A model generated the notes under the pieces. That model ran no database searches. It was not told the origin of the DNA and worked only from the letters and a program-made list of their open reading frames with translations. This document shows positions 8,761-44,134 of a DNA stretch of 44,134 bases, piece after piece. Where the stretch lies: NCBI GenBank assembly GCA_964463055.1, contig CAYXAX010000003.1:1-44134 (forward strand). The letters are read 5' to 3'. Within the stretch, counting starts at the first letter, position 1, and every line of letters begins with the position of its first letter. Source of the DNA: an uncultured Gammaproteobacteria bacterium. GTDB taxonomy: Bacteria > Pseudomonadota > Gammaproteobacteria > CAWJPQ01. Both the position numbers and the translations under genes were made by a program.

Positions 8761-9630
8761 ATGAAAAACATGCTCAGCATTATCATTCCGGCTAAAAACG
8801 AGGAAAACGGATTGCGACTCATTCTGCCGGAACTGCGCAGTCGCTTCCCTGAAGCCGAGATCATCGTGGTGGACGATGGCTCTACCGACAATACGGCCGT
8901 AGTATGCCGTGAACTTGGCGCGCAGGTCGTGTCGCACCCCTACAGCATGGGCAACGGCGCGGCCATCAAGAGCGGCGCCCGGGCAGCAGGCGGTGATATA
9001 TTCGTCTTTATGGATGCAGACGGCCAGCACAAGCCCGAGGATATCGAGAAATTGCTGGAGAAGCTGGACCATGGATTTGATATGGCGGTCGGGGCGCGCA
9101 GTGACGGCTCCCAGGCCAGCCTGGGACGGCTCTACGCCAATAATCTGTACAACCGCCTGGCCACCTGGATGACCGGACACAAGATCGCCGACCTCACGTC
9201 AGGCTTTCGCGCGGTAATCGCGCCCAAGTTCCGAAACTTTCTATACCTCCTGCCCAACGGATTTTCATACCCCACCACCATCACCATGGCGTTTTTTCGC
9301 GCCGGCTATGGGGTTTCCTATATACCCATCGTGGCCAATCCGCGCATCGGCAAAAGTCACATCGACCCGCTGCGCGATGGTGTGCGTTTTTTACTGATTA
9401 TCTTCCGTGTCGGGACCCTGTATTCACCATTGAAGCTGTTTCTACCCATCAGCCTGGCGTTTTTTGGCATAGGGCTTGCTTATTACATATACACCTATAC
9501 CACCATGGGCCGCTTTACCAACATGAGCGCGTTGCTGTTCATTACCTCGGTGCTCGTGTTTCTGATCGGGTTGATATCGGAGCAGATCACCATGCTGATT
9601 TATCAGCGTACCCATAAGGATTCGTCCTGA
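8761..9630 (+). CDS. GT2 glycosyltransferase of the DPM1/GtrB/ArnC type (probable polyprenol-phosphate sugar synthase)
   Basis: Motifs IIIPAKNEE, VVDDGSTDNT and FMDADGQH, plus two C-terminal TM helices (LFLPISLAFFGIGLAYYIY and ALLFITSVLVFLIGLI) typical of this subgroup. Confidence 0.75.
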   Translation: MKNMLSIIIPAKNEENGLRLILPELRSRFPEAEIIVVDDGSTDNTAVVCRELGAQVVSHPYSMGNGAAIKSGARAAGGDIFVFMDADGQHKPEDIEKLLEKLDHGFDMAVGARSDGSQASLGRLYANNLYNRLATWMTGHKIADLTSGFRAVIAPKFRNFLYLLPNGFSYPTTITMAFFRAGYGVSYIPIVANPRIGKSHIDPLRDGVRFLLIIFRVGTLYSPLKLFLPISLAFFGIGLAYYIYTYTTMGRFTNMSALLFITSVLVFLIGLISEQITMLIYQRTHKDSS

Positions 9631-36919: not shown

Positions 36920-38662
36920 ATGATCAAACAACTGCATTACAAGCATGCTGCGCCGCGCCGCATGCTGTTGTCTATCGCCATCACACTGTGCATGTGTTTG
37001 ACTATGCCGCCGGCAGGCGCCACGGGCGCCGCCCCGCCGGCTGCCGCCATTGCCACAGCCCACCCCTTGGCCACCGCGGCTGGCAAAGAGATACTCACCG
37101 CCGGTGGCAACGCCTTCGACGCCGCGGTGGCTGTCACCGCGGCCCTGGCGGTGGTGGAACCCATGAGTTCCGGCCTCGGCGGTGGCGGATTCTGGCTGCT
37201 GCACACCGCCGACGACAACCGCAACACCATGATCGACGGACGTGAACGCGCACCACTGTCCGCGTCCCGTGACATGTATCTGGATAAGCACGGCGACGTC
37301 GTCCCCGGCCTGTCCATCAATGGCCCCCTGGCCGCCGGCATACCGGGCGTCCCCGCCGCCATGGTCTACCTGGCTCAACACTACGGAAAGCTGCCATTGG
37401 CGCGTTCCCTGGCCCCGGCCATCAACTATGCACGCCAGGGTTTCGCAGTGACCGAACACTACCGCGCCCTGGCACGCTTTCGCCTCGATGTACTGCGCCG
37501 ATCGCCTGCCGCCGCCGCAACGTTCCTGGTCAACAATGACGTGCCGCCGCGGGGGACAATCATCAGGCAACCGGACCTTGCCGCCACCCTGCAGGCCATC
37601 GCCAAGCAGGGAGAAAAGGGCTTTTACGCCGGCAGTGTTGCACGGCGCATGGTGGACAGCGTGCGTGCGGCCGGCGGCGTATGGCAAATGCAAGATCTGG
37701 AGAAATACACGGTGGTGGAGCGCAAACCCATCGAAGGCCGCTATCGTGGGACGCGCATCATCGCGGCGGCCCCGCCGTCTTCCGGTGGCATCGCCCTGGT
37801 GACCATGCTCAACATACTCAGCGGTTACGACCTCGATAACATGGACGACGTGACCCGCAAGCACCTCATCATCGAAGCCATGCGTCGCGCCTACCGCGAC
37901 CGTGCCGAATATCTGGGTGACCCTGATTTCGTCACTATACCGGTCAAACGCCTCACGCATCCTTACTACGCCGCCGGCCTGCGCAACTCCATCCGCCTGG
38001 ACCGAGCCACTCCCAGCGCCTCACTGCCGGGGATCAGCGAACATCCCGAAGGCGACAATACCACCCATTTCAGTATCCTGGATCAACAAGGCAACCGGGT
38101 GGCGGCCACCCTCTCGATTAACTACCCCTTCGGCTCAGGCTTCATTGCCCCGGACACGGGGGTGCTGCTCAACGATGAGATGGATGACTTCTCCGCCAAA
38201 CCGGGCACACCCAACGTATATGGTCTGGTGGGCGCCGAGGCCAACGCCATCGCACCGGGCAAGCGGCCGCTGTCCAGCATGACGCCAACGTTCCTGGAGG
38301 GTGAGCACGGGGTGGCCCTGCTGGGCACGCCCGGAGGCAGCCGCATTATCACCATGGTGCTGCTTGCCACCCTGGATTATATGCAAGGTCACCCCCCCGA
38401 GGACTGGGTCAAGCTACCGCGCTTTCACCATCAATATCTGCCGGACGAGGTCCAGTTCGAACCCGGCGCCTTCACCGAACGGGAACAACGGCAATTGAGG
38501 GCCATGGGCCATACACTCAAACCGCTGAGTCGCCGCTACGGCAACATGCAGGCCATCCTGTGGCAAGTCGATCACAACAAGGTGATGGCCGCCAGCGATC
38601 CCCGCGGCGATGGCAAGGCCGTGGTGGTGGACGTGACAAAGTCCATGACGGCAACCCAGTAA
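36920..38662 (+). CDS. ggt: Gamma-glutamyltransferase
   Basis: 580 aa with a signal-like N-terminus. The autoprocessing threonine context is GDNTTHFSI, and downstream Ntn-hydrolase GGS/PGG motifs are present. Confidence 0.88.
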   Translation: MIKQLHYKHAAPRRMLLSIAITLCMCLTMPPAGATGAAPPAAAIATAHPLATAAGKEILTAGGNAFDAAVAVTAALAVVEPMSSGLGGGGFWLLHTADDNRNTMIDGRERAPLSASRDMYLDKHGDVVPGLSINGPLAAGIPGVPAAMVYLAQHYGKLPLARSLAPAINYARQGFAVTEHYRALARFRLDVLRRSPAAAATFLVNNDVPPRGTIIRQPDLAATLQAIAKQGEKGFYAGSVARRMVDSVRAAGGVWQMQDLEKYTVVERKPIEGRYRGTRIIAAAPPSSGGIALVTMLNILSGYDLDNMDDVTRKHLIIEAMRRAYRDRAEYLGDPDFVTIPVKRLTHPYYAAGLRNSIRLDRATPSASLPGISEHPEGDNTTHFSILDQQGNRVAATLSINYPFGSGFIAPDTGVLLNDEMDDFSAKPGTPNVYGLVGAEANAIAPGKRPLSSMTPTFLEGEHGVALLGTPGGSRIITMVLLATLDYMQGHPPEDWVKLPRFHHQYLPDEVQFEPGAFTEREQRQLRAMGHTLKPLSRRYGNMQAILWQVDHNKVMAASDPRGDGKAVVVDVTKSMTATQ

Positions 38663-38829: not shown

Positions 38830-39432
38830 ATGGCGGCCACACGCCCGACGGCGGACAGCGGTGTCTCGAGCCTTACCGTACCCGCCGGGTTGACGTTGAC
38901 ATTTCTGACTTTGCAGCACCACATGGAACAATCACAGCATCGCTACATCCTAAAATTTTTGATCGGCTCCGCGTTATTTTTCTTTGTCGGGACGATACAG
39001 GGCGTGCTGCAGGTATTGCCGCCCATCCGCGCCTGGCTCGACTCCATCGGCAGCCCCATGGCGGGACCCGGACACATGATCGATCCCCTGGCCCATGCCC
39101 ATATCAACGTGGTGGGCGGGGTGGTGGTCATGGCCATGGGACTCAGTTATTATCTGTTCCCCACCATTTCGGGCAAGCCCATACACTCCGTGCGCCTGGC
39201 CAATCACTCCTTCTGGTGGATATCCACCGGGGTATGCCTGTTCTACATCACACTGCTGGTTTTCGGCACCATCGAAGGTAATCTGTTACTCCACGACCCT
39301 GCCTCCGTCCCCGCTGTCCATCACTACTATGCCCCGGTCCTGAGTGTCGCCTCCACCGTCATGGGCATGGGGTTCTGGATCTTCGTCGCCAATATCCTGC
39401 TCACCGTCAGAGATATTTACAAAAAACCATGA
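38830..39432 (+). CDS. Four-helix membrane protein resembling the N-terminal helices of heme-copper oxidase subunit I (CcoN/NorB-like fragment)
   Basis: KFLIGSALFFFVGTIQGVLQVLP ... AHAHINVVGGVVVMAMGLSYYLFP follows the helix I/II pattern of HCO subunit I, including the helix II His and YY..P. It is only 170-200 aa. Alternative start at ATG 38923 (MEQSQHRY). Confidence 0.55.
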   Translation: MAATRPTADSGVSSLTVPAGLTLTFLTLQHHMEQSQHRYILKFLIGSALFFFVGTIQGVLQVLPPIRAWLDSIGSPMAGPGHMIDPLAHAHINVVGGVVVMAMGLSYYLFPTISGKPIHSVRLANHSFWWISTGVCLFYITLLVFGTIEGNLLLHDPASVPAVHHYYAPVLSVASTVMGMGFWIFVANILLTVRDIYKKP

Positions 39433-39971
39433 CCAAGCCCTGCGGCTGCCCGGACGACTATCCTGATTGGCACAATAAGGATGTGGACCTGGGCGGACAA
39501 TGCGTCCACGTCCTGCCCATTCCAACGTTCATGCACATGCCCCTGGCCTATTCGCTGTATGCCAAACGCCAGCAGCAGATTATCGATCAACTCCAGCTAA
39601 ACGAGCGCTGGTCGGGATTCACCATGACCCGCACCGGCGTGCTGCGCGGTCGCATCATGCGACTGCTGGAGTTATCTGAATCCCCCGCACGGCGTATCGA
39701 GTATCTGCCCCGGCCGTTTCATCTGCGCGGTTACCTGCACATGGGCTCAGTGAGCAATATCCGTCTGCCGTTGCATCAAATGTCAATGGATATGCTGGAG
39801 AAGGGCCGCCGCGCCCAGGAACTCTATCTGAGTTATCTGACATGCCCCGAGTGCCGCGGCGAAAATCGACCGGATAAAATCCTGCTGCTGCGGCGCTGGA
39901 TAGAAAGCCCCGCCCTGAAAAAGCGAGCTGAAAAAGAGAGATCAAAGAGAAGAGAGAAGCAGGCCAAATAA
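39429..39971 (+). CDS. Cys-containing soluble hypothetical protein, translationally coupled to the oxidase-like fragment
   Basis: ATGA overlap with the upstream ORF. 180 aa with N-terminal PCGCPDDYPDWH, an internal Cys (GGQCVH), C-terminal CPEC and a Lys/Arg-rich tail (KKRAEKERSKRREKQAK). No family recognised. Confidence 0.6.
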   Translation: MTKPCGCPDDYPDWHNKDVDLGGQCVHVLPIPTFMHMPLAYSLYAKRQQQIIDQLQLNERWSGFTMTRTGVLRGRIMRLLELSESPARRIEYLPRPFHLRGYLHMGSVSNIRLPLHQMSMDMLEKGRRAQELYLSYLTCPECRGENRPDKILLLRRWIESPALKKRAEKERSKRREKQAK

Positions 39972-40043: not shown

Positions 40044-40460
40044 TTAGCTTTGGGCACGGGTGGACTGCGGCGCTGCCAGCAGGGGAAAGCGCAGATAACC
40101 GATATCATCCCCCTCCTGAATCTGCACGTTCAATTCTTCACTGGACGGATTATGGACCGCCACGGCGCGGCGGAATACGCCCATATAACCGTCCTGAATC
40201 ATCTGCTTCCATGGGTCCGTATCATCGATGCGCACCGATACGATAAAGTCATGGGCCGGCCCACCCTTAGCGCGGGAAATAATCAAAATAAATTCGTCCA
40301 TGCCCGCGACCACCGGCGTCGGCCGACTCTGCATCTCCACCGTATAGTTCTTCCATTTCTGCGGCGGAATCTTGGCCGTGGCCTGTTCCTCACTGCATGC
40401 GCTGAGCAACAGCGCACACAGGATGCATAACCAAATCACTCTAGGGTTCATCTTTGGCAT
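40044..40460 (-). CDS. Lipoprotein, FixH/YtkA-like Ig-fold domain suspected
   Basis: Lipobox LLSAC after a hydrophobic signal, about 115-aa mature beta-rich domain. Last gene of the ccoG-like operon. Start at 40460 or 40451. Confidence 0.5.
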   Translation of the reverse strand: MPKMNPRVIWLCILCALLLSACSEEQATAKIPPQKWKNYTVEMQSRPTPVVAGMDEFILIISRAKGGPAHDFIVSVRIDDTDPWKQMIQDGYMGVFRRAVAVHNPSSEELNVQIQEGDDIGYLRFPLLAAPQSTRAQS

Positions 40461-40746
40461 ACTTCTGCAGGTAAGCGACCAACCGCCGTATTTGAGTTTC
40501 AGTCATGGGGGCAAGCGCTTTGGATATCCGATGCTGCTGCATCCTCAGTACCACATTGGGCCACTCCTCGGCCTTGTGAGTATCGGGTTGCGGCGGCGCG
40601 TGGCAATCGGAGCAAAACTGTCTCAACAATTTTTCTCCCGGCGACGACGGCTGCGGGTAGTGATTTTGATTTTCACCGACCTGCCCGCTCTCCTCGTTAC
40701 CGGTGCAGCCGATCAGCAGCATCGATGCCAGCAAGAGTCCCCTCAT
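40441..40746 (-). CDS. Lipoprotein monoheme c-type cytochrome
   Basis: Start at MRGLLLASMLLIGC (lipobox LIGC). Single CSDCH heme-binding motif and a downstream Met candidate in VVLRMQQH. The ORF-track start at 40995 overlaps the upstream gene. Confidence 0.65.
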   Translation of the reverse strand: MRGLLLASMLLIGCTGNEESGQVGENQNHYPQPSSPGEKLLRQFCSDCHAPPQPDTHKAEEWPNVVLRMQQHRISKALAPMTETQIRRLVAYLQKYAKDEP

Positions 40747-40885
40747 GGGACGCTGAAGACCCGTCGACCGCCGCCACTTCGCCCCGGGCAACAGCCCGAA
40801 TCGCTCATTTACCCAAGTGTAAACTTTGCTTTCCCGCCGATCCCCGTCTTGTCTGGCATGCGCCGATGGCCTTTTCAATCGCCTG

Positions 40886-41329
40886 TCAGCTCTTCGAATC
40901 ATCCGTCTGCTGCTGCGATTCGGCCTGCTTCTCCTGCATGGCCTGTTTTTTTTCCTTGCGTATATGGCGCAGGTCGACCATCCAATAGATGGCAAAGGCC
41001 ACCACCGTGACGTAGATAACGGCTCCGGGCAGACCCCAGTCGAACCACGAACGGTGAAAATCGGGACGGTTTCCCCAGAAGGGGAAACTGAAGCCGACTG
41101 CGATTACCAACAGCAGCACGAACAAGGCCACAAACCAGTACGGAATATGGTGCTGGGAATCGGGAATCTTCTCCACCATTTCCCAGTCTTCGAGGCCACG
41201 CTTTTCAAGACGCTCTTCCTCGCTCTGGTATCCAAAGTGATCGTCGCGCAGTTCACCCCAGCCGGGTTCGTCGACAGGCTTCGGCGTCTTGGATTGCTCG
41301 TCCGTATCAGAGACCGTGTCTTTTACCAT
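40886..41329 (-). CDS. Two-TM protein with cbb3 oxidase FixP/CcoP N-terminal-like anchor, no heme motif
   Basis: EKIPDSQHHIPYWFVALFVLLLVIAVGF resembles the FixP_N pattern (..LP.WW..F....). It has a second TM and an acidic N-tail and basic/Gln-rich C-tail. There are no Cys residues at all. Confidence 0.5.
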   Translation of the reverse strand: MVKDTVSDTDEQSKTPKPVDEPGWGELRDDHFGYQSEEERLEKRGLEDWEMVEKIPDSQHHIPYWFVALFVLLLVIAVGFSFPFWGNRPDFHRSWFDWGLPGAVIYVTVVAFAIYWMVDLRHIRKEKKQAMQEKQAESQQQTDDSKS

Positions 41330-41332
41330 GGC

Positions 41333-42667
41333 TCATGATCTGTCTTTGTTGATGGCTACGTGCTCTATGCGAAAATGACCCTGCCAGCCGCTGTCGGATT
41401 TGGCGTATATCGTCACTGGATAGATGCCGGGCGGCAGAGTATCGTCGACGTGCAGCCATACACTCTGGCGACCGGCGGTGGAGAAATCAACACGCTTCGT
41501 GGACAACGCATAAGTCCCCTTGGGCAATCCCTTCACCTGCAAACTCACCGTACCCGGACTGTACAGCTTATTGGCCACGTCGATATGGTAATCCTGTATC
41601 TGGTGACTGCGATACATTTCAGCGCGGAACGCCGACAGATTATAGGGTTGGTAACTCCATAGCCCCCAGGCAAACAGCGACACACCGATGAGGAACGCAG
41701 GGAGTACCCAGCCCACGCGCTGTGAAAGTGTTGCCAAATGCTGGCTGCTGTGCTTGTTGACGCCGGGGCGCTCGCCGAACTTGAACGTCAACAGGCCGGG
41801 CACCTGATCCTTTTCGTGGAGTGAATTGCATGCGGTGATGCAGGCGCCGCAGTTGGTACAACTGTCATAGGTAGCGGTATCCCGGGGATCGATGGTTACC
41901 GGGCACACGGTCAGGCAGAATTTGCACTTGGTGCATTCTTCGGCACGGTCGGCATCATACTCCACATGGAGGGTCTGCTTGGTCTTGAACAGGAATTGCC
42001 AGATTCGGTAAATGCACATGTAACGGCACACGTAATAACGCATCACCGACAGATTAACCAGGGTCATAAACACGAACATGGTGTAGACCCAATGCAGCGA
42101 GCCGGACAGGCGCGCGTCATGCTGGAAGGTGAGGAACGACCACACCGCACCCGGCGTGTAGAAGTACAACAGGGGTATCAGCGAAAATACCATGGAGACC
42201 CCCAGCAGCTGCGCCCCGAGAAGCGCCCAATTGAGCACTCTGTTCTTACCCTTGGAGACACGGCTCTTGCCGAAACTGTCCCAGTCGATGACCGCACGTT
42301 TTCCCAGTGTTCTCAGGGTGGTCTTGTTGGCCCAGGATGACAGGGTATTCTGCGGACAGGCCCAGCCGCAGAACGCCGTGCCGATAGTCGAGTACAGCAA
42401 CACCATGAAGCACGCCACGGACAGCCACATCCCAAACACCAGGAAAAAATCGGAAAACCAGACTTGACGTCCAAGGACCACGAACCCCGACGATACATCG
42501 ATGCGAAACAGACCGCTGATCGGAATCAGGACAAGCAGTGCAATGAACAGGGTCTGGGTGGTGATGCGCTTCCAGTGAATGTCTTTGCCGGACTTGGCTT
42601 GCAGCACCGCCCCCTGGGAGGACTCGACCACCACCGGGATCTTCTGTAACAGTTCGTCTCCACTCAT
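41333..42667 (-). CDS. CcoG/FixG-family 4Fe-4S ferredoxin-type membrane protein
   Basis: CGWACPQN after the TM helices, two cluster motifs CTKCKFCLTVCP and CTNCGACITAC, and a C-terminal Ig-like domain. Start chosen at MSGDELLQ after GAGGGGTGAG. Confidence 0.75.
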   Translation of the reverse strand: MSGDELLQKIPVVVESSQGAVLQAKSGKDIHWKRITTQTLFIALLVLIPISGLFRIDVSSGFVVLGRQVWFSDFFLVFGMWLSVACFMVLLYSTIGTAFCGWACPQNTLSSWANKTTLRTLGKRAVIDWDSFGKSRVSKGKNRVLNWALLGAQLLGVSMVFSLIPLLYFYTPGAVWSFLTFQHDARLSGSLHWVYTMFVFMTLVNLSVMRYYVCRYMCIYRIWQFLFKTKQTLHVEYDADRAEECTKCKFCLTVCPVTIDPRDTATYDSCTNCGACITACNSLHEKDQVPGLLTFKFGERPGVNKHSSQHLATLSQRVGWVLPAFLIGVSLFAWGLWSYQPYNLSAFRAEMYRSHQIQDYHIDVANKLYSPGTVSLQVKGLPKGTYALSTKRVDFSTAGRQSVWLHVDDTLPPGIYPVTIYAKSDSGWQGHFRIEHVAINKDRS

Positions 42668-43249: not shown

Positions 43250-44134
43250 CTAGCGTTGCATTTCGGTGTCTCCCGCACCTGACCGAAGCACCCTGTCCAG
43301 GGGGCTGACGGCCTGTATTCTGTCGCGGTACATACGGGCCTGTTGATCGTCGCCAGCCTGGGCCTCCAGATGCCATAACGCCTGCAGCGCAGGCACGTGA
43401 TCGGGCCTGATACGCAGAATGGTCTGCAGTGCCTTGCGCCGCGTCAGACCATGCGCCCCGGCCCGGGACAGAGTGGCGAACATCTGGTCTGCCAGGCTGA
43501 AACTGACCCAGCGATCACTAGGATTGCCCTCATAGGCCAGACGCAACAGGCGCTGGGCACTGCCCTCCATCCCCTCCAGACTGGCCAACCAGCTGCGTGT
43601 CGCCAGCTCCGTGGACAGATAGCTGCGCTCGAATGTCTCTTTGTCCGCGGCCGCTACCCCCAAGGCCTTCTCAGCCTGATCCACACCGGGACGCAGCTTC
43701 AGCAACATGTCGAGCACCGAGGCAGTATCCAGGTCATCCCGGTAGCGGGCCTGAGGCAGGCGGTATTCAATGTACGGCGCCCACTCATCCTCCACCGGGC
43801 CCGGCGGGACGCGGATAGCGCCCCAATAGCGCCCCAGCCAGGTCCATGGACCTTCGCCGCCGGTAATGCGTTGCTGTGTGGCCTCGGAAGTACCGTGCAT
43901 ATGACCGAGCACCGCCGTCATCGGGTCCAACGCCCCCTGCGGTCCCACCAACGCGAATCGAAACCCGTCGATGTACCCTACCGCATTGGGAAAGACGTGC
44001 TGAAACGTGCGCATCACGGCCTCCAGTGATGCCGGGTCGAACTGGTTGAGGGCCAGCCACTGGACGAAGAGGCCTCCCGGCGCGAGCCGTGCCCGGACGC
44101 GCTGAAACTGCTGCACCGACAGCAGGGCACTGCG
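43250..44134 (-). CDS. Spermidine-synthase-like protein with helical C-terminal extension, 5' end outside the window
   Basis: The frame stays open to the window edge (...SALLSVQQFQRVRARLAPGGLFVQWL, typical of the post-SAM-binding region of SpeE-like methyltransferase folds). The C-terminal ~180 aa are helical-repeat-like. Confidence 0.55.
   Translation of the reverse strand, partial: RSALLSVQQFQRVRARLAPGGLFVQWLALNQFDPASLEAVMRTFQHVFPNAVGYIDGFRFALVGPQGALDPMTAVLGHMHGTSEATQQRITGGEGPWTWLGRYWGAIRVPPGPVEDEWAPYIEYRLPQARYRDDLDTASVLDMLLKLRPGVDQAEKALGVAAADKETFERSYLSTELATRSWLASLEGMEGSAQRLLRLAYEGNPSDRWVSFSLADQMFATLSRAGAHGLTRRKALQTILRIRPDHVPALQALWHLEAQAGDDQQARMYRDRIQAVSPLDRVLRSGAGDTEMQR

Follow-up and report, generated by a model that had tools for sequence, protein, structure and literature searches.

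The window analyzed here is a 44,134-nucleotide stretch of contig CAYXAX010000003.1 (assembly GCA_964463055.1) from an uncultured gammaproteobacterium of the CAWJPQ01 lineage, and our subject is a pair of overlapping open reading frames (ORFs) within it, ORF1 and ORF2, together with a four-gene operon that converges on them. Subunit I of heme-copper oxidases and nitric oxide (NO) reductases has a three-fold pseudo-symmetric core of 12 helices; we know of no established origin for this core. ORF1 corresponds to one of the three four-helix repeats of subunit I, nearest to helices IX to XII of cbb3 CcoN, and is a complete stand-alone protein under selection. We give a probability of about 0.5 to the reading that ORF1 forms a homotrimeric, heme b-binding, oxidase-like ring that works with ORF2, a cytoplasmic partner with a four-cysteine (Cys4) site, as an accessory to cytochrome c/cbb3 respiration.

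ORF1 corresponds to a single repeat of oxidase subunit I

As listed, ORF1 has 200 amino acids. Because its homologues have about 170 and align from M32, the true start is probably the ATG at 38923 (M32, MEQSQ...), which gives a protein of 169 amino acids, and residue numbers below count from that start. An initial annotation, made from the sequence alone, had related ORF1 to heme-copper oxidase subunit I, and this kinship is upheld: ORF1 scores 42.3 bits against Pfam COX1 (PF00115), covering positions 284 to 405 of the 436 in the profile, and since the gathering score of 34.8 is exceeded the match is not a chance one. The NCBIfam ccoN, CtaD, and CyoB models each match ORF1 through their C-terminal thirds, and its best match among solved structures is CcoN of P. 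stutzeri (3mk7_A, residues 291 to 409). In that alignment H51-M-I-D54 of ORF1 falls on H337-Y-T-D340, and H58-A-H60 falls on H345-V-H347, whose two histidines we take to be the axial ligands of hemes b3 and b. The AlphaFold2 (AF2) model of ORF1 consists of four long helices (predicted local distance difference test [pLDDT], 83). Foldseek ranked CcoN first for this model (template modeling [TM] score, 0.76 to 0.78; root mean square deviation, 2.4 to 2.7 Å; 167 to 168 columns), followed by NorB, qNOR, and A/B-type oxidases.

The initial annotation assigned ORF1 to helices I and II from motifs that are indeed present in it (GSALFFFVGTIQGVLQVLP and GPGHMIDPLAHAHINVVGG...YYLFP), but sequence and fold evidence places the protein on helices IX to XII instead. 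With 15 aligned canonical subunit I sequences as the hhalign target, the ORF1 family matched helices IX to XII (repeat 3) at 99.5% (E = 3.7e-23), helices I to IV (repeat 1) at 96.9% (E = 1.4e-10), and helices VI to VIII (repeat 2) at 93% (E = 3.4e-7). The likeness to helices I and II thus arises because each of the three oxidase repeats can be aligned to the ORF1 profile; repeat 1 gives only the second-best repeat alignment, and an origin from helices I and II was rejected as the primary match.

It had also been claimed that ORF1 could carry none of the ligands of helices VI to X and is therefore not a catalytic oxidase. The first claim stands for CuB and falls for heme. The CuB/FeB ligands (the helix VI histidine and the helix VII HH) are absent from ORF1, and no HH occurs in any of its transmembrane helices; its sole HH, H133-H134, lies in a periplasmic loop, and position 134 is arginine in the family consensus. 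Both heme ligands of helix X, however, are present and invariant, the characteristic HxH of subunit I appearing in ORF1 as H58-A-H60. The protein has no 12-helix single-chain core (169 to 200 amino acids, four helices in the AF2 model), and the second ligand of the low-spin heme, the helix II histidine, is absent in cis, there being no second repeat in the chain. Because every CuB ligand is missing, ORF1 would not, as judged from its sequence, be an oxidase by known chemistry, in agreement with the second claim. The equivalent of the helix II histidine (H58) could act only in trans, in an ORF1 oligomer.

Among 79 aligned family members, H51, D54, H58, and H60 are invariant, as are N62, R36, E118, Y136, and many glycines, and H133 is conserved in at least 90%. 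By the positive-inside rule and homology, these conserved residues sit in the periplasmic half of the protein.

ORF1 is widespread and under purifying selection

A word-indexed search recovered at least 949 clusters of ORF1 homologues at E ≤ 1e-3, and all 120 matches listed are 156 to 213 amino acids long. In a scan of one genome per species, 370 species genomes carry ORF1, each confirmed by tblastn. The best 80 of these 370 carriers are mostly Zetaproteobacteria, including the cultured Mariprofundus ferrooxydans PV-1 and strain EBB-1; the remainder of the 80 are uncultured Gammaproteobacteria (Chromatiales and metagenome-assembled genomes from biocathodes). Relative to the closest relative (locus L005, 83% identity), the ratio of nonsynonymous to synonymous substitution rates (dN/dS) is 0.086 for ORF1 and 0.14 for ORF2.

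Four helices are few for a subunit I, and the public annotation of ORF1 reads "cbb3-type cytochrome c oxidase subunit I", so a pseudogene remnant or a miscalled fragment of a full-length ccoN or norB had to be considered. We regard the probability of this as negligible. Homologues of about 170 amino acids occur across several hundred species, the dN/dS of 0.086 speaks against decay, and a coupled downstream partner is conserved (see below). When all six frames of the entire window were scanned with a canonical oxidase profile, ORF1 alone came up, with no remnant of helices I to VIII in any frame. The initial annotation had named a frameshifted remnant as one outcome that would undo its proposal; we reject this candidate on the uniform length of the homologues, the purifying selection on both ORFs, and the absence of any other oxidase remnant from the window, and ORF1 is intact.

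Relatives with three tandem copies may mirror the oxidase cofactor sites

When 1.84 billion representatives were searched exhaustively with a profile, 394 matches to the ORF1 unit were returned, and the top ones are not small proteins. They are chains of 625 to 1,122 amino acids with three tandem full-length units (independent E values of 1e-9 to 1e-46 per copy), and 122 proteins of at least 600 amino acids bear three full-length tandem copies of an ORF1-like unit. All copies align to one region of the COX1 and ccoN models, their last third, and for this reason the triplicated proteins are not colinear oxidases. One group is mostly from Chloroflexota and is named "cbb3-type cytochrome c oxidase subunit I" by the Prokaryotic Genome Annotation Pipeline; a second kind comprises proteins of about 415 amino acids, also with three copies of the unit. 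A rough neighbor-joining tree and BLAST scores indicate at least three independent triplications. Chloroflexia-type repeats cluster by position in the tree, which points to a single triplication event; the repeats of P0307 are nearest to one another and to single-unit proteins, and those of P0323 and P0329 form a third set. Recurrent fusion of three copies is what would be expected of a unit that acts as a trimer in its free form.

The histidines of these repeats can be compared site by site, with H1 and H2 denoting the first and second histidine of the HxH motif (H58 and H60 in ORF1). In real oxidases, repeat 1 has H1 only (the helix II heme ligand), repeat 2 has H2 only (the helix VI CuB ligand), and repeat 3 has both; in the alignment, the heme histidine of transmembrane helix 2 falls on H58 and the CuB histidine of transmembrane helix 6 falls on H60. 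Each cofactor site of real oxidases thus has the H2 of one repeat on one side and the H1 of the following repeat on the other (3 to 1 and 2 to 3), and the third interface is empty. Among 136 sequences of the Chloroflexia-type triplicated group, H2 is kept in repeat 1 (with H1 in 48), HxH is found in repeat 2 of 131, and HxQ is found in repeat 3 of 126. Read in this way, the Chloroflexia-type proteins would keep two inter-repeat sites and one empty interface, the oxidase pattern rotated by one repeat. The group of about 415 amino acids has HxH in repeats 1, 2, and 3, and in an ORF1 homotrimer there would also be three such sites, all equivalent and each between chains.

ORF2 is a conserved, coupled partner with four invariant cysteines

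ORF1 and ORF2 lie on the same strand and overlap by ATGA (38830 to 39432 and 39429 to 39971), as the initial annotation described. We surveyed the context of the pair by calling ORFs in 84 fetched loci and searching them with a profile of each window protein. ORF2 directly follows ORF1 in all 82 loci that have downstream DNA, so that the pairing is conserved. The stop of ORF1 is overlapped by the nearest downstream ATG in 38 of these 82 loci, and most of the others have it within about 12 nucleotides, an arrangement that indicates translational coupling.

ORF2 has neither a signal peptide nor a hydrophobic segment and is therefore taken to be cytoplasmic. The CGC and CPEC motifs and the basic tail noted earlier are present. 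The tail holds 11 K/R among its last 21 residues, and conservation there is limited to an RRW...KR core; ORF2 relatives span 166 to 189 amino acids. Earlier the protein could be assigned to no family, a statement that we can now replace: PF20603 (Bact_hydrolase) is matched by 84 of 85 ORF2 relatives at E ≤ 0.01 (best, 1.7e-11), and most of them already bear PF20603 in the precomputed table. The window ORF2 itself scores 20.0 bits (E = 6.8e-4), below the cut-off of 27. On the matches of its relatives we assign ORF2 provisionally to PF20603, in which "hydrolase" is a family label only; the PF20603 partner is limited to the ORF1 family. No NCBIfam model matched ORF2, and searches of solved-structure sequences with the single sequence and with a profile yielded nothing better than noise (tryparedoxin, E = 1.3; vimentin, E = 0.06).

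The AF2 model of ORF2 (pLDDT 90) contains a duplicated beta-alpha-beta-beta module with a ligand cleft, of the GyrI-like/SOUL-HEBP kind. Foldseek returned EcmrR-C, CTR107, the lin2189 hydrolase, and CtaZ and, more weakly, SOUL/p22HBP (TM score, 0.45 to 0.60; identity, 9 to 16%); entries 6wl5_A, 9rtm, 5x5m_A, 7zhd, and 2hva had probabilities of 0.96 to 1.0 and TM scores of 0.49 to 0.60. Regulators of the BmrR/EcmrR type bind their effectors through GyrI-like domains, and this raises the possibility of a heme-based gas or redox sensor, in which ORF1 would sense either a gas (O2 or NO) or the redox state of the pool of cytochrome c and control ORF2 as the effector, whose basic tail may bind nucleic acid or membrane. 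The basic C-terminal helix of ORF2 suits such a role, as does a triplicated archaeal-type relative that adjoins hemerythrin-PAS and ScdA_N genes linked to NO/O2 stress. We nonetheless consider a sensor very unlikely: profile searches detected no DNA-binding domain, the basic tail is poorly conserved, and there are no evident regulator target genes, the neighbors resembling redox and assembly proteins.

A convergent operon encodes a cytochrome c and a CcoG-like protein

The ccoG-like operon said to converge on the pair is there (Table 1). Four genes, for a lipoprotein, a cytochrome c, a protein with two transmembrane helices, and a CcoG-like protein, lie directly downstream of the pair in 59 loci, including that of PV-1. 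The operon is missing from 17 loci with enough sequence, in which the pair alone is conserved; about three quarters of the loci thus keep it. No second universal partner was found in the 17 operon-less loci, where a divergent 135-amino-acid membrane ORF (7 loci) and a diheme cytochrome c (5 loci) occur sporadically. Scans of 38.0 to 44.1 kb for Rfam families, promoters, and terminators gave nothing above chance.

TABLE 1 Features of the ORF1-ORF2 pair and the convergent operon in the window
Feature	Position	Strand	Evidence
ORF1, single-repeat homologue of heme-copper oxidase subunit I (helices IX to XII) with four transmembrane helices	38830..39432	+	COX1 match, AF2, Foldseek, dN/dS
H51-M-I-D54-P-L-A-H58-A-H60, HxxD motif and helix-X HxH heme-ligand motif	39073..39102	+	Periplasmic loop/start of helix 2
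H133-H-Y-Y136	39319..39330	+	Periplasmic loop joining helices 3 and 4 of ORF1
ORF2, 180-amino-acid cytoplasmic protein, probable PF20603 family, GyrI-like/SOUL-like fold	39429..39971	+	Profiles, AF2, Foldseek
C5-G-C7 of ORF2, first half of Cys4 site	39441..39449	+	C5 and C7 invariant in 85 sequences
C139-P-E-C142 of ORF2, second half of Cys4 site	39843..39854	+	C139 and C142 invariant in 85 sequences
Basic C-terminal helix of ORF2 (SPALKKRAEKERSKRREKQAK)	39906..39968	+	Sequence; predicted helix 161-179
Gene 4, 138-amino-acid lipoprotein, lipobox LSAC, not assigned to a family	40044..40460	-	Orthologue downstream of pair in 59 loci
Gene 3, lipoprotein monoheme cytochrome c, CSDCH at 40600-40614	40441..40746	-	Weak DHC, Cytochrome_CBB3, and SorB matches; orthologues
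Gene 2, 147-amino-acid FixP_N-like protein with two transmembrane helices, conserved cytoplasmic N-domain and IPxWF motif	40886..41329	-	Alignment, hhalign
Gene 1, CcoG/FixG-like membrane ferredoxin (Fer4_5 + Fer4_18), 472-amino-acid ORF	41333..42667 (ORF extends to 42751)	-	TIGR02745, Pfam

Gene 1 scores 106.8 bits against TIGR02745 over profile positions 37 to 385, where the equivalog cut-off is 316.7, and its Fer4_18 (1.1e-12) and Fer4_5 (1.9e-8) domains are above the Pfam cut-offs; it thus appears to be a CcoG paralogue, not an equivalog. The family of gene 2 conserves the segment DHxGYxSEEERxxKRGLEDWExVExIPxSQxxIPxWF. Against Pfam FixP_N (PF14715) gene 2 is sub-threshold (E = 0.069), with 6 of 25 orthologues at E ≤ 1, and hhalign matched it to the stand-alone FixP_N protein of a ccoNO operon (locus L088) at 92% (E = 5.7e-7). 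Gene 3 probably starts at M84 (MRGLLLASMLLIGCTG), though its ORF runs to 40995. The upstream extension (40746 to 40995, minus strand) comprises 83 Arg-rich, nonconserved codons that overlap the end of the 147-amino-acid gene, and because the orthologues start at the lipoprotein signal peptide it is probably not translated. The earlier statement that no oxidase partner is adjacent therefore needs to be divided. None of the eight neighboring proteins matches FixO, NorC, or COX2, as had been said; but the convergent operon does encode a small lipoprotein monoheme cytochrome c, on the opposite strand, and a FixP_N-like protein.

The CcoG-like neighbor also brings copper into consideration, as CcoG is reportedly a cupric reductase. 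In a copper module, the CxC...CxxC of ORF2 would bind cytoplasmic Cu(I), the CcoG-like protein would reduce Cu(II), and H51, H58, H60, and H133 of ORF1 would bind copper or pass it to the assembly of the CuB site of cbb3. Four invariant cysteines in ORF2 and four conserved histidines near the periplasmic face of ORF1 agree with this, and a bare metal could be held by two histidines facing each other across an interface. However, the conserved ORF1 histidines are exactly the heme ligands of the homologous helix, and its HxxD loop and many invariant glycines suit a heme pocket. The periplasmic lipoprotein (gene 4) lacks copper motifs of the Met, His, or Cys kind, the cluster has no gene for a P-type ATPase, Sco, or PCuAC, and the CcoG-like protein is far under the CcoG equivalog cut-off. 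We therefore hold the copper reading to be unlikely.

Relatives of ORF1 occur within cbb3-type operons

In all three loci looked up, a ccoN/FixO operon ends with the triplicated gene; COX1 (467 to 520 amino acids) comes first, then a fusion of FixO and cytochrome c, and between three and six small ORFs precede the triplicated gene. These triplicated proteins (L085, 7001 to 8974; L086, 7001 to 9190; L087, 7001 to 9019) have 657 to 729 amino acids, with three ORF1-like units and a C-terminal membrane extension, and come from Chloroflexia-type genomes; they are annotated "cbb3-type cytochrome c oxidase subunit I" yet lack CuB ligands. In L087 the gene stands directly before a ccm cytochrome c maturation cluster.

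Single units are found in similar settings. An operon in L088 (4566 to 8187) encodes a cytochrome c, a single-unit protein (189 amino acids), a 72-amino-acid membrane ORF, and ccoN (472 amino acids), and continues with a short FixO (173 amino acids) and a stand-alone FixP_N (127 amino acids) without a cytochrome domain, an unusual split cbb3-type set. In L001 (4716 to 6353), a divergent unit with four transmembrane helices (RAHTHVNLLGW) has a start that overlaps the stop of a membrane-anchored monoheme cytochrome c and precedes a CxxC lipoprotein of the thioredoxin/TlpA-like kind; this set lies directly downstream of a ccoN-like gene and a FixO-like gene of unusual length. An ORF1-ORF2 pair is present in this genome too, at 8001 to 9025. 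A different branch, on archaeal-looking contigs (L090, 5001 to 6263; L091, 3193 to 4455), is a 420-amino-acid protein with three short ORF1-like repeats, each with an HxH. Its gene adjoins DUF438-hemerythrin-PAS_10, ScdA_N/DUF1858, CGGC, and iron-sulfur assembly genes, neighbors that hint at a link of this branch to NO or O2 stress.

Such operons invite the view that ORF1 is an assembly factor or extra subunit of cbb3, which would mimic helices IX to XII of CcoN and either hold heme b/b3 before insertion or dock on CcoN, with ORF2 bringing the heme from the cytoplasmic side. CcoN is the closest relative of ORF1, the ORF2 fold matches p22HBP/SOUL heme-binding proteins among others, and triplicated and single-unit relatives are encoded within ccoN/FixO operons; we know of no described mechanism for the insertion of heme b into CcoN. 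On the other side, repeated independent triplications argue for a self-sufficient ring and not for a part-mimic of CcoN, SOUL is among the weaker fold matches of ORF2 (TM score, 0.45 to 0.49), the invariant residues of ORF2 are cysteines and not the typical heme ligands of that fold, and ORF1-family genes are mostly not beside ccoNOP. An assembly role thus seems to us unlikely.

A proposed trimeric complex

In the reading that we favor, three copies of ORF1 would build a 12-helix ring resembling subunit I, with a b-type heme at each interface, held between H60 of one copy and H58 of its neighbor. The ring would trade electrons with the periplasmic lipoprotein cytochrome c, and ORF2 would dock onto the conserved cytoplasmic loops of ORF1 and hold a metal at its Cys4 site. 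The resulting six-gene module would be an accessory redox or cofactor-supply device, not a terminal oxidase, and would serve the cytochrome c/cbb3 branch in microaerophilic iron- or sulfur-oxidizing Zeta- and Gammaproteobacteria. The homotrimer is proposed on three grounds: ORF1 resembles all three oxidase repeats, relatives have triplicated the unit independently, and the histidine pattern agrees with the cofactor sites.

Several points weigh against this proposal. The ORF1 trimer and its hemes are deduced from relatives, and the loop of residues 44 to 52, which holds the invariant H51, is poorly modeled. The alignment of the helix 2 histidine with H58 needs a 2-residue gap and is given by alignment of hidden Markov models to one another, not by plain phmmer. 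A bare metal ion could sit between the two histidines instead of heme. ORF1-family loci seldom adjoin ccoNOP (L001 only), and because about a quarter of the loci have no nearby convergent operon, the six genes may not all belong to a single machine. The ORF2 fold is typical of small-molecule binders or regulators rather than of redox proteins, and the proposal supplies neither a direction nor a thermodynamic rationale for electron flow.

A larger claim, which we offer as a tentative possibility, is that a C3-symmetric homotrimer rebuilds the 12-helix core with three inter-subunit b hemes and represents a pre-triplication state, whether relic or reversion, and that with its Cys4 partner and the convergent operon it makes up an undescribed cytochrome c-linked membrane redox complex. 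ORF1 is much more similar to repeat 3 of C-family oxidases than to the other repeats, which allows two readings: ORF1 may have arisen by secondary fission, or the difference may only mean that repeat 3 is the best conserved of the three. The suggestion in the initial annotation of a heme- or copper-handling or sensing module derived from an oxidase is compatible with our data; candidate roles of the module are the relay of electrons, the supply of copper or of heme, and sensing.

In the open-access literature, the only literature searched, we found no published description of the ORF1 family or of its triplicated relatives. The family is visible in databases only under the misnomers "cytochrome oxidase" and "cbb3 subunit I" and its partner only as PF20603. 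Misannotation as cbb3 subunit I can inflate counts of terminal oxidases in metagenomes of iron- and sulfur-oxidizing bacteria. A stand-alone single repeat with HxH offers a small, tractable system for the question of how the oxidase core and its heme sites arose, the more so as its relatives have repeatedly been fused again into triplets whose histidine patterns mirror real cofactor sites. If the homotrimer is real, it would be a living example of the state that preceded the triplication from which the respiratory O2 and NO reductases came. The six-gene module, present in the model iron oxidizer M. ferrooxydans PV-1 and in biocathode Gammaproteobacteria, would be an unstudied part of their cytochrome c/cbb3 machinery.

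Other genes in the window

Elsewhere the window carries housekeeping genes, among them pilin, biotin-type, and cell-division-type ORFs, coaD, and ggt, but no ccoN. The gamma-glutamyltranspeptidase gene ggt (36920 to 38662, plus strand) lies directly upstream of the pair, a position kept only in relatives from Gammaproteobacteria (the window and 11 of the fetched loci), not in Zetaproteobacteria; in L001, L029, and L030 it is found further downstream. Its adjacency is probably lineage synteny, not function. A 145-amino-acid ORF with a type IV pilin N terminus (4016 to 4453, plus strand) precedes a pair of large ORFs (about 700 and 672 amino acids) in the ORF list. A 288-amino-acid ORF at 43250 to 44116 (minus strand) has weak matches only, to the C-terminal part of fused MFS/spermidine-synthase proteins and to TPR models.

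Comparison with known systems

The closest known protein is CcoN (3mk7_A), with which ORF1 shares its fold across all 169 residues at about 21 to 24% identity, the HxxD loop, the helix-X HxH, a P..G.P.YS..LA..FW loop motif, and, by the positive-inside rule, an N-in/C-in topology. Unlike CcoN, ORF1 is one repeat of three and lacks the CuB histidines of helices VI and VII, the cross-linked tyrosine, and a cis helix II histidine; its operon has neither CcoO nor CcoP and instead encodes a soluble Cys4 partner not known from oxidases. NorB and qNOR belong to the same superfamily and share the fold (Foldseek TM score, 0.75 for 4xyd_A and 0.74 for 6qq6_A), but ORF1 lacks their FeB/CuB-site ligands and matches them more weakly than it does CcoN.

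In the triplicated relatives (Chloroflexia-type, 650 to 730 amino acids, and those of about 415), each repeat is a full ORF1-like unit with the same motifs and up to 47% identity. They differ from ORF1 in that a single chain contains all three units, carries C-terminal extensions, and has differentiated histidines, and in being encoded in ccoN/FixO operons without a PF20603 partner; they are themselves uncharacterized. The convergent operon resembles ccoGHIS (fixGHIS) in its CcoG-like Fer4_5/Fer4_18 protein, its small membrane or periplasmic partners, and its FixP_N-like helix pair, whereas it has no CcoI ATPase, CcoS, or detectable FixH domain and carries a lipoprotein cytochrome c in their place. 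Finally, the ORF2 model has the fold of the GyrI-like/SOUL-HEBP proteins (BmrR-C, EcmrR-C, CTR107, lin2189, CtaZ, and p22HBP), with Foldseek probabilities of up to 1.0, but adds two features not described for those proteins, a basic tail and a CxC...CxxC site that is invariant.

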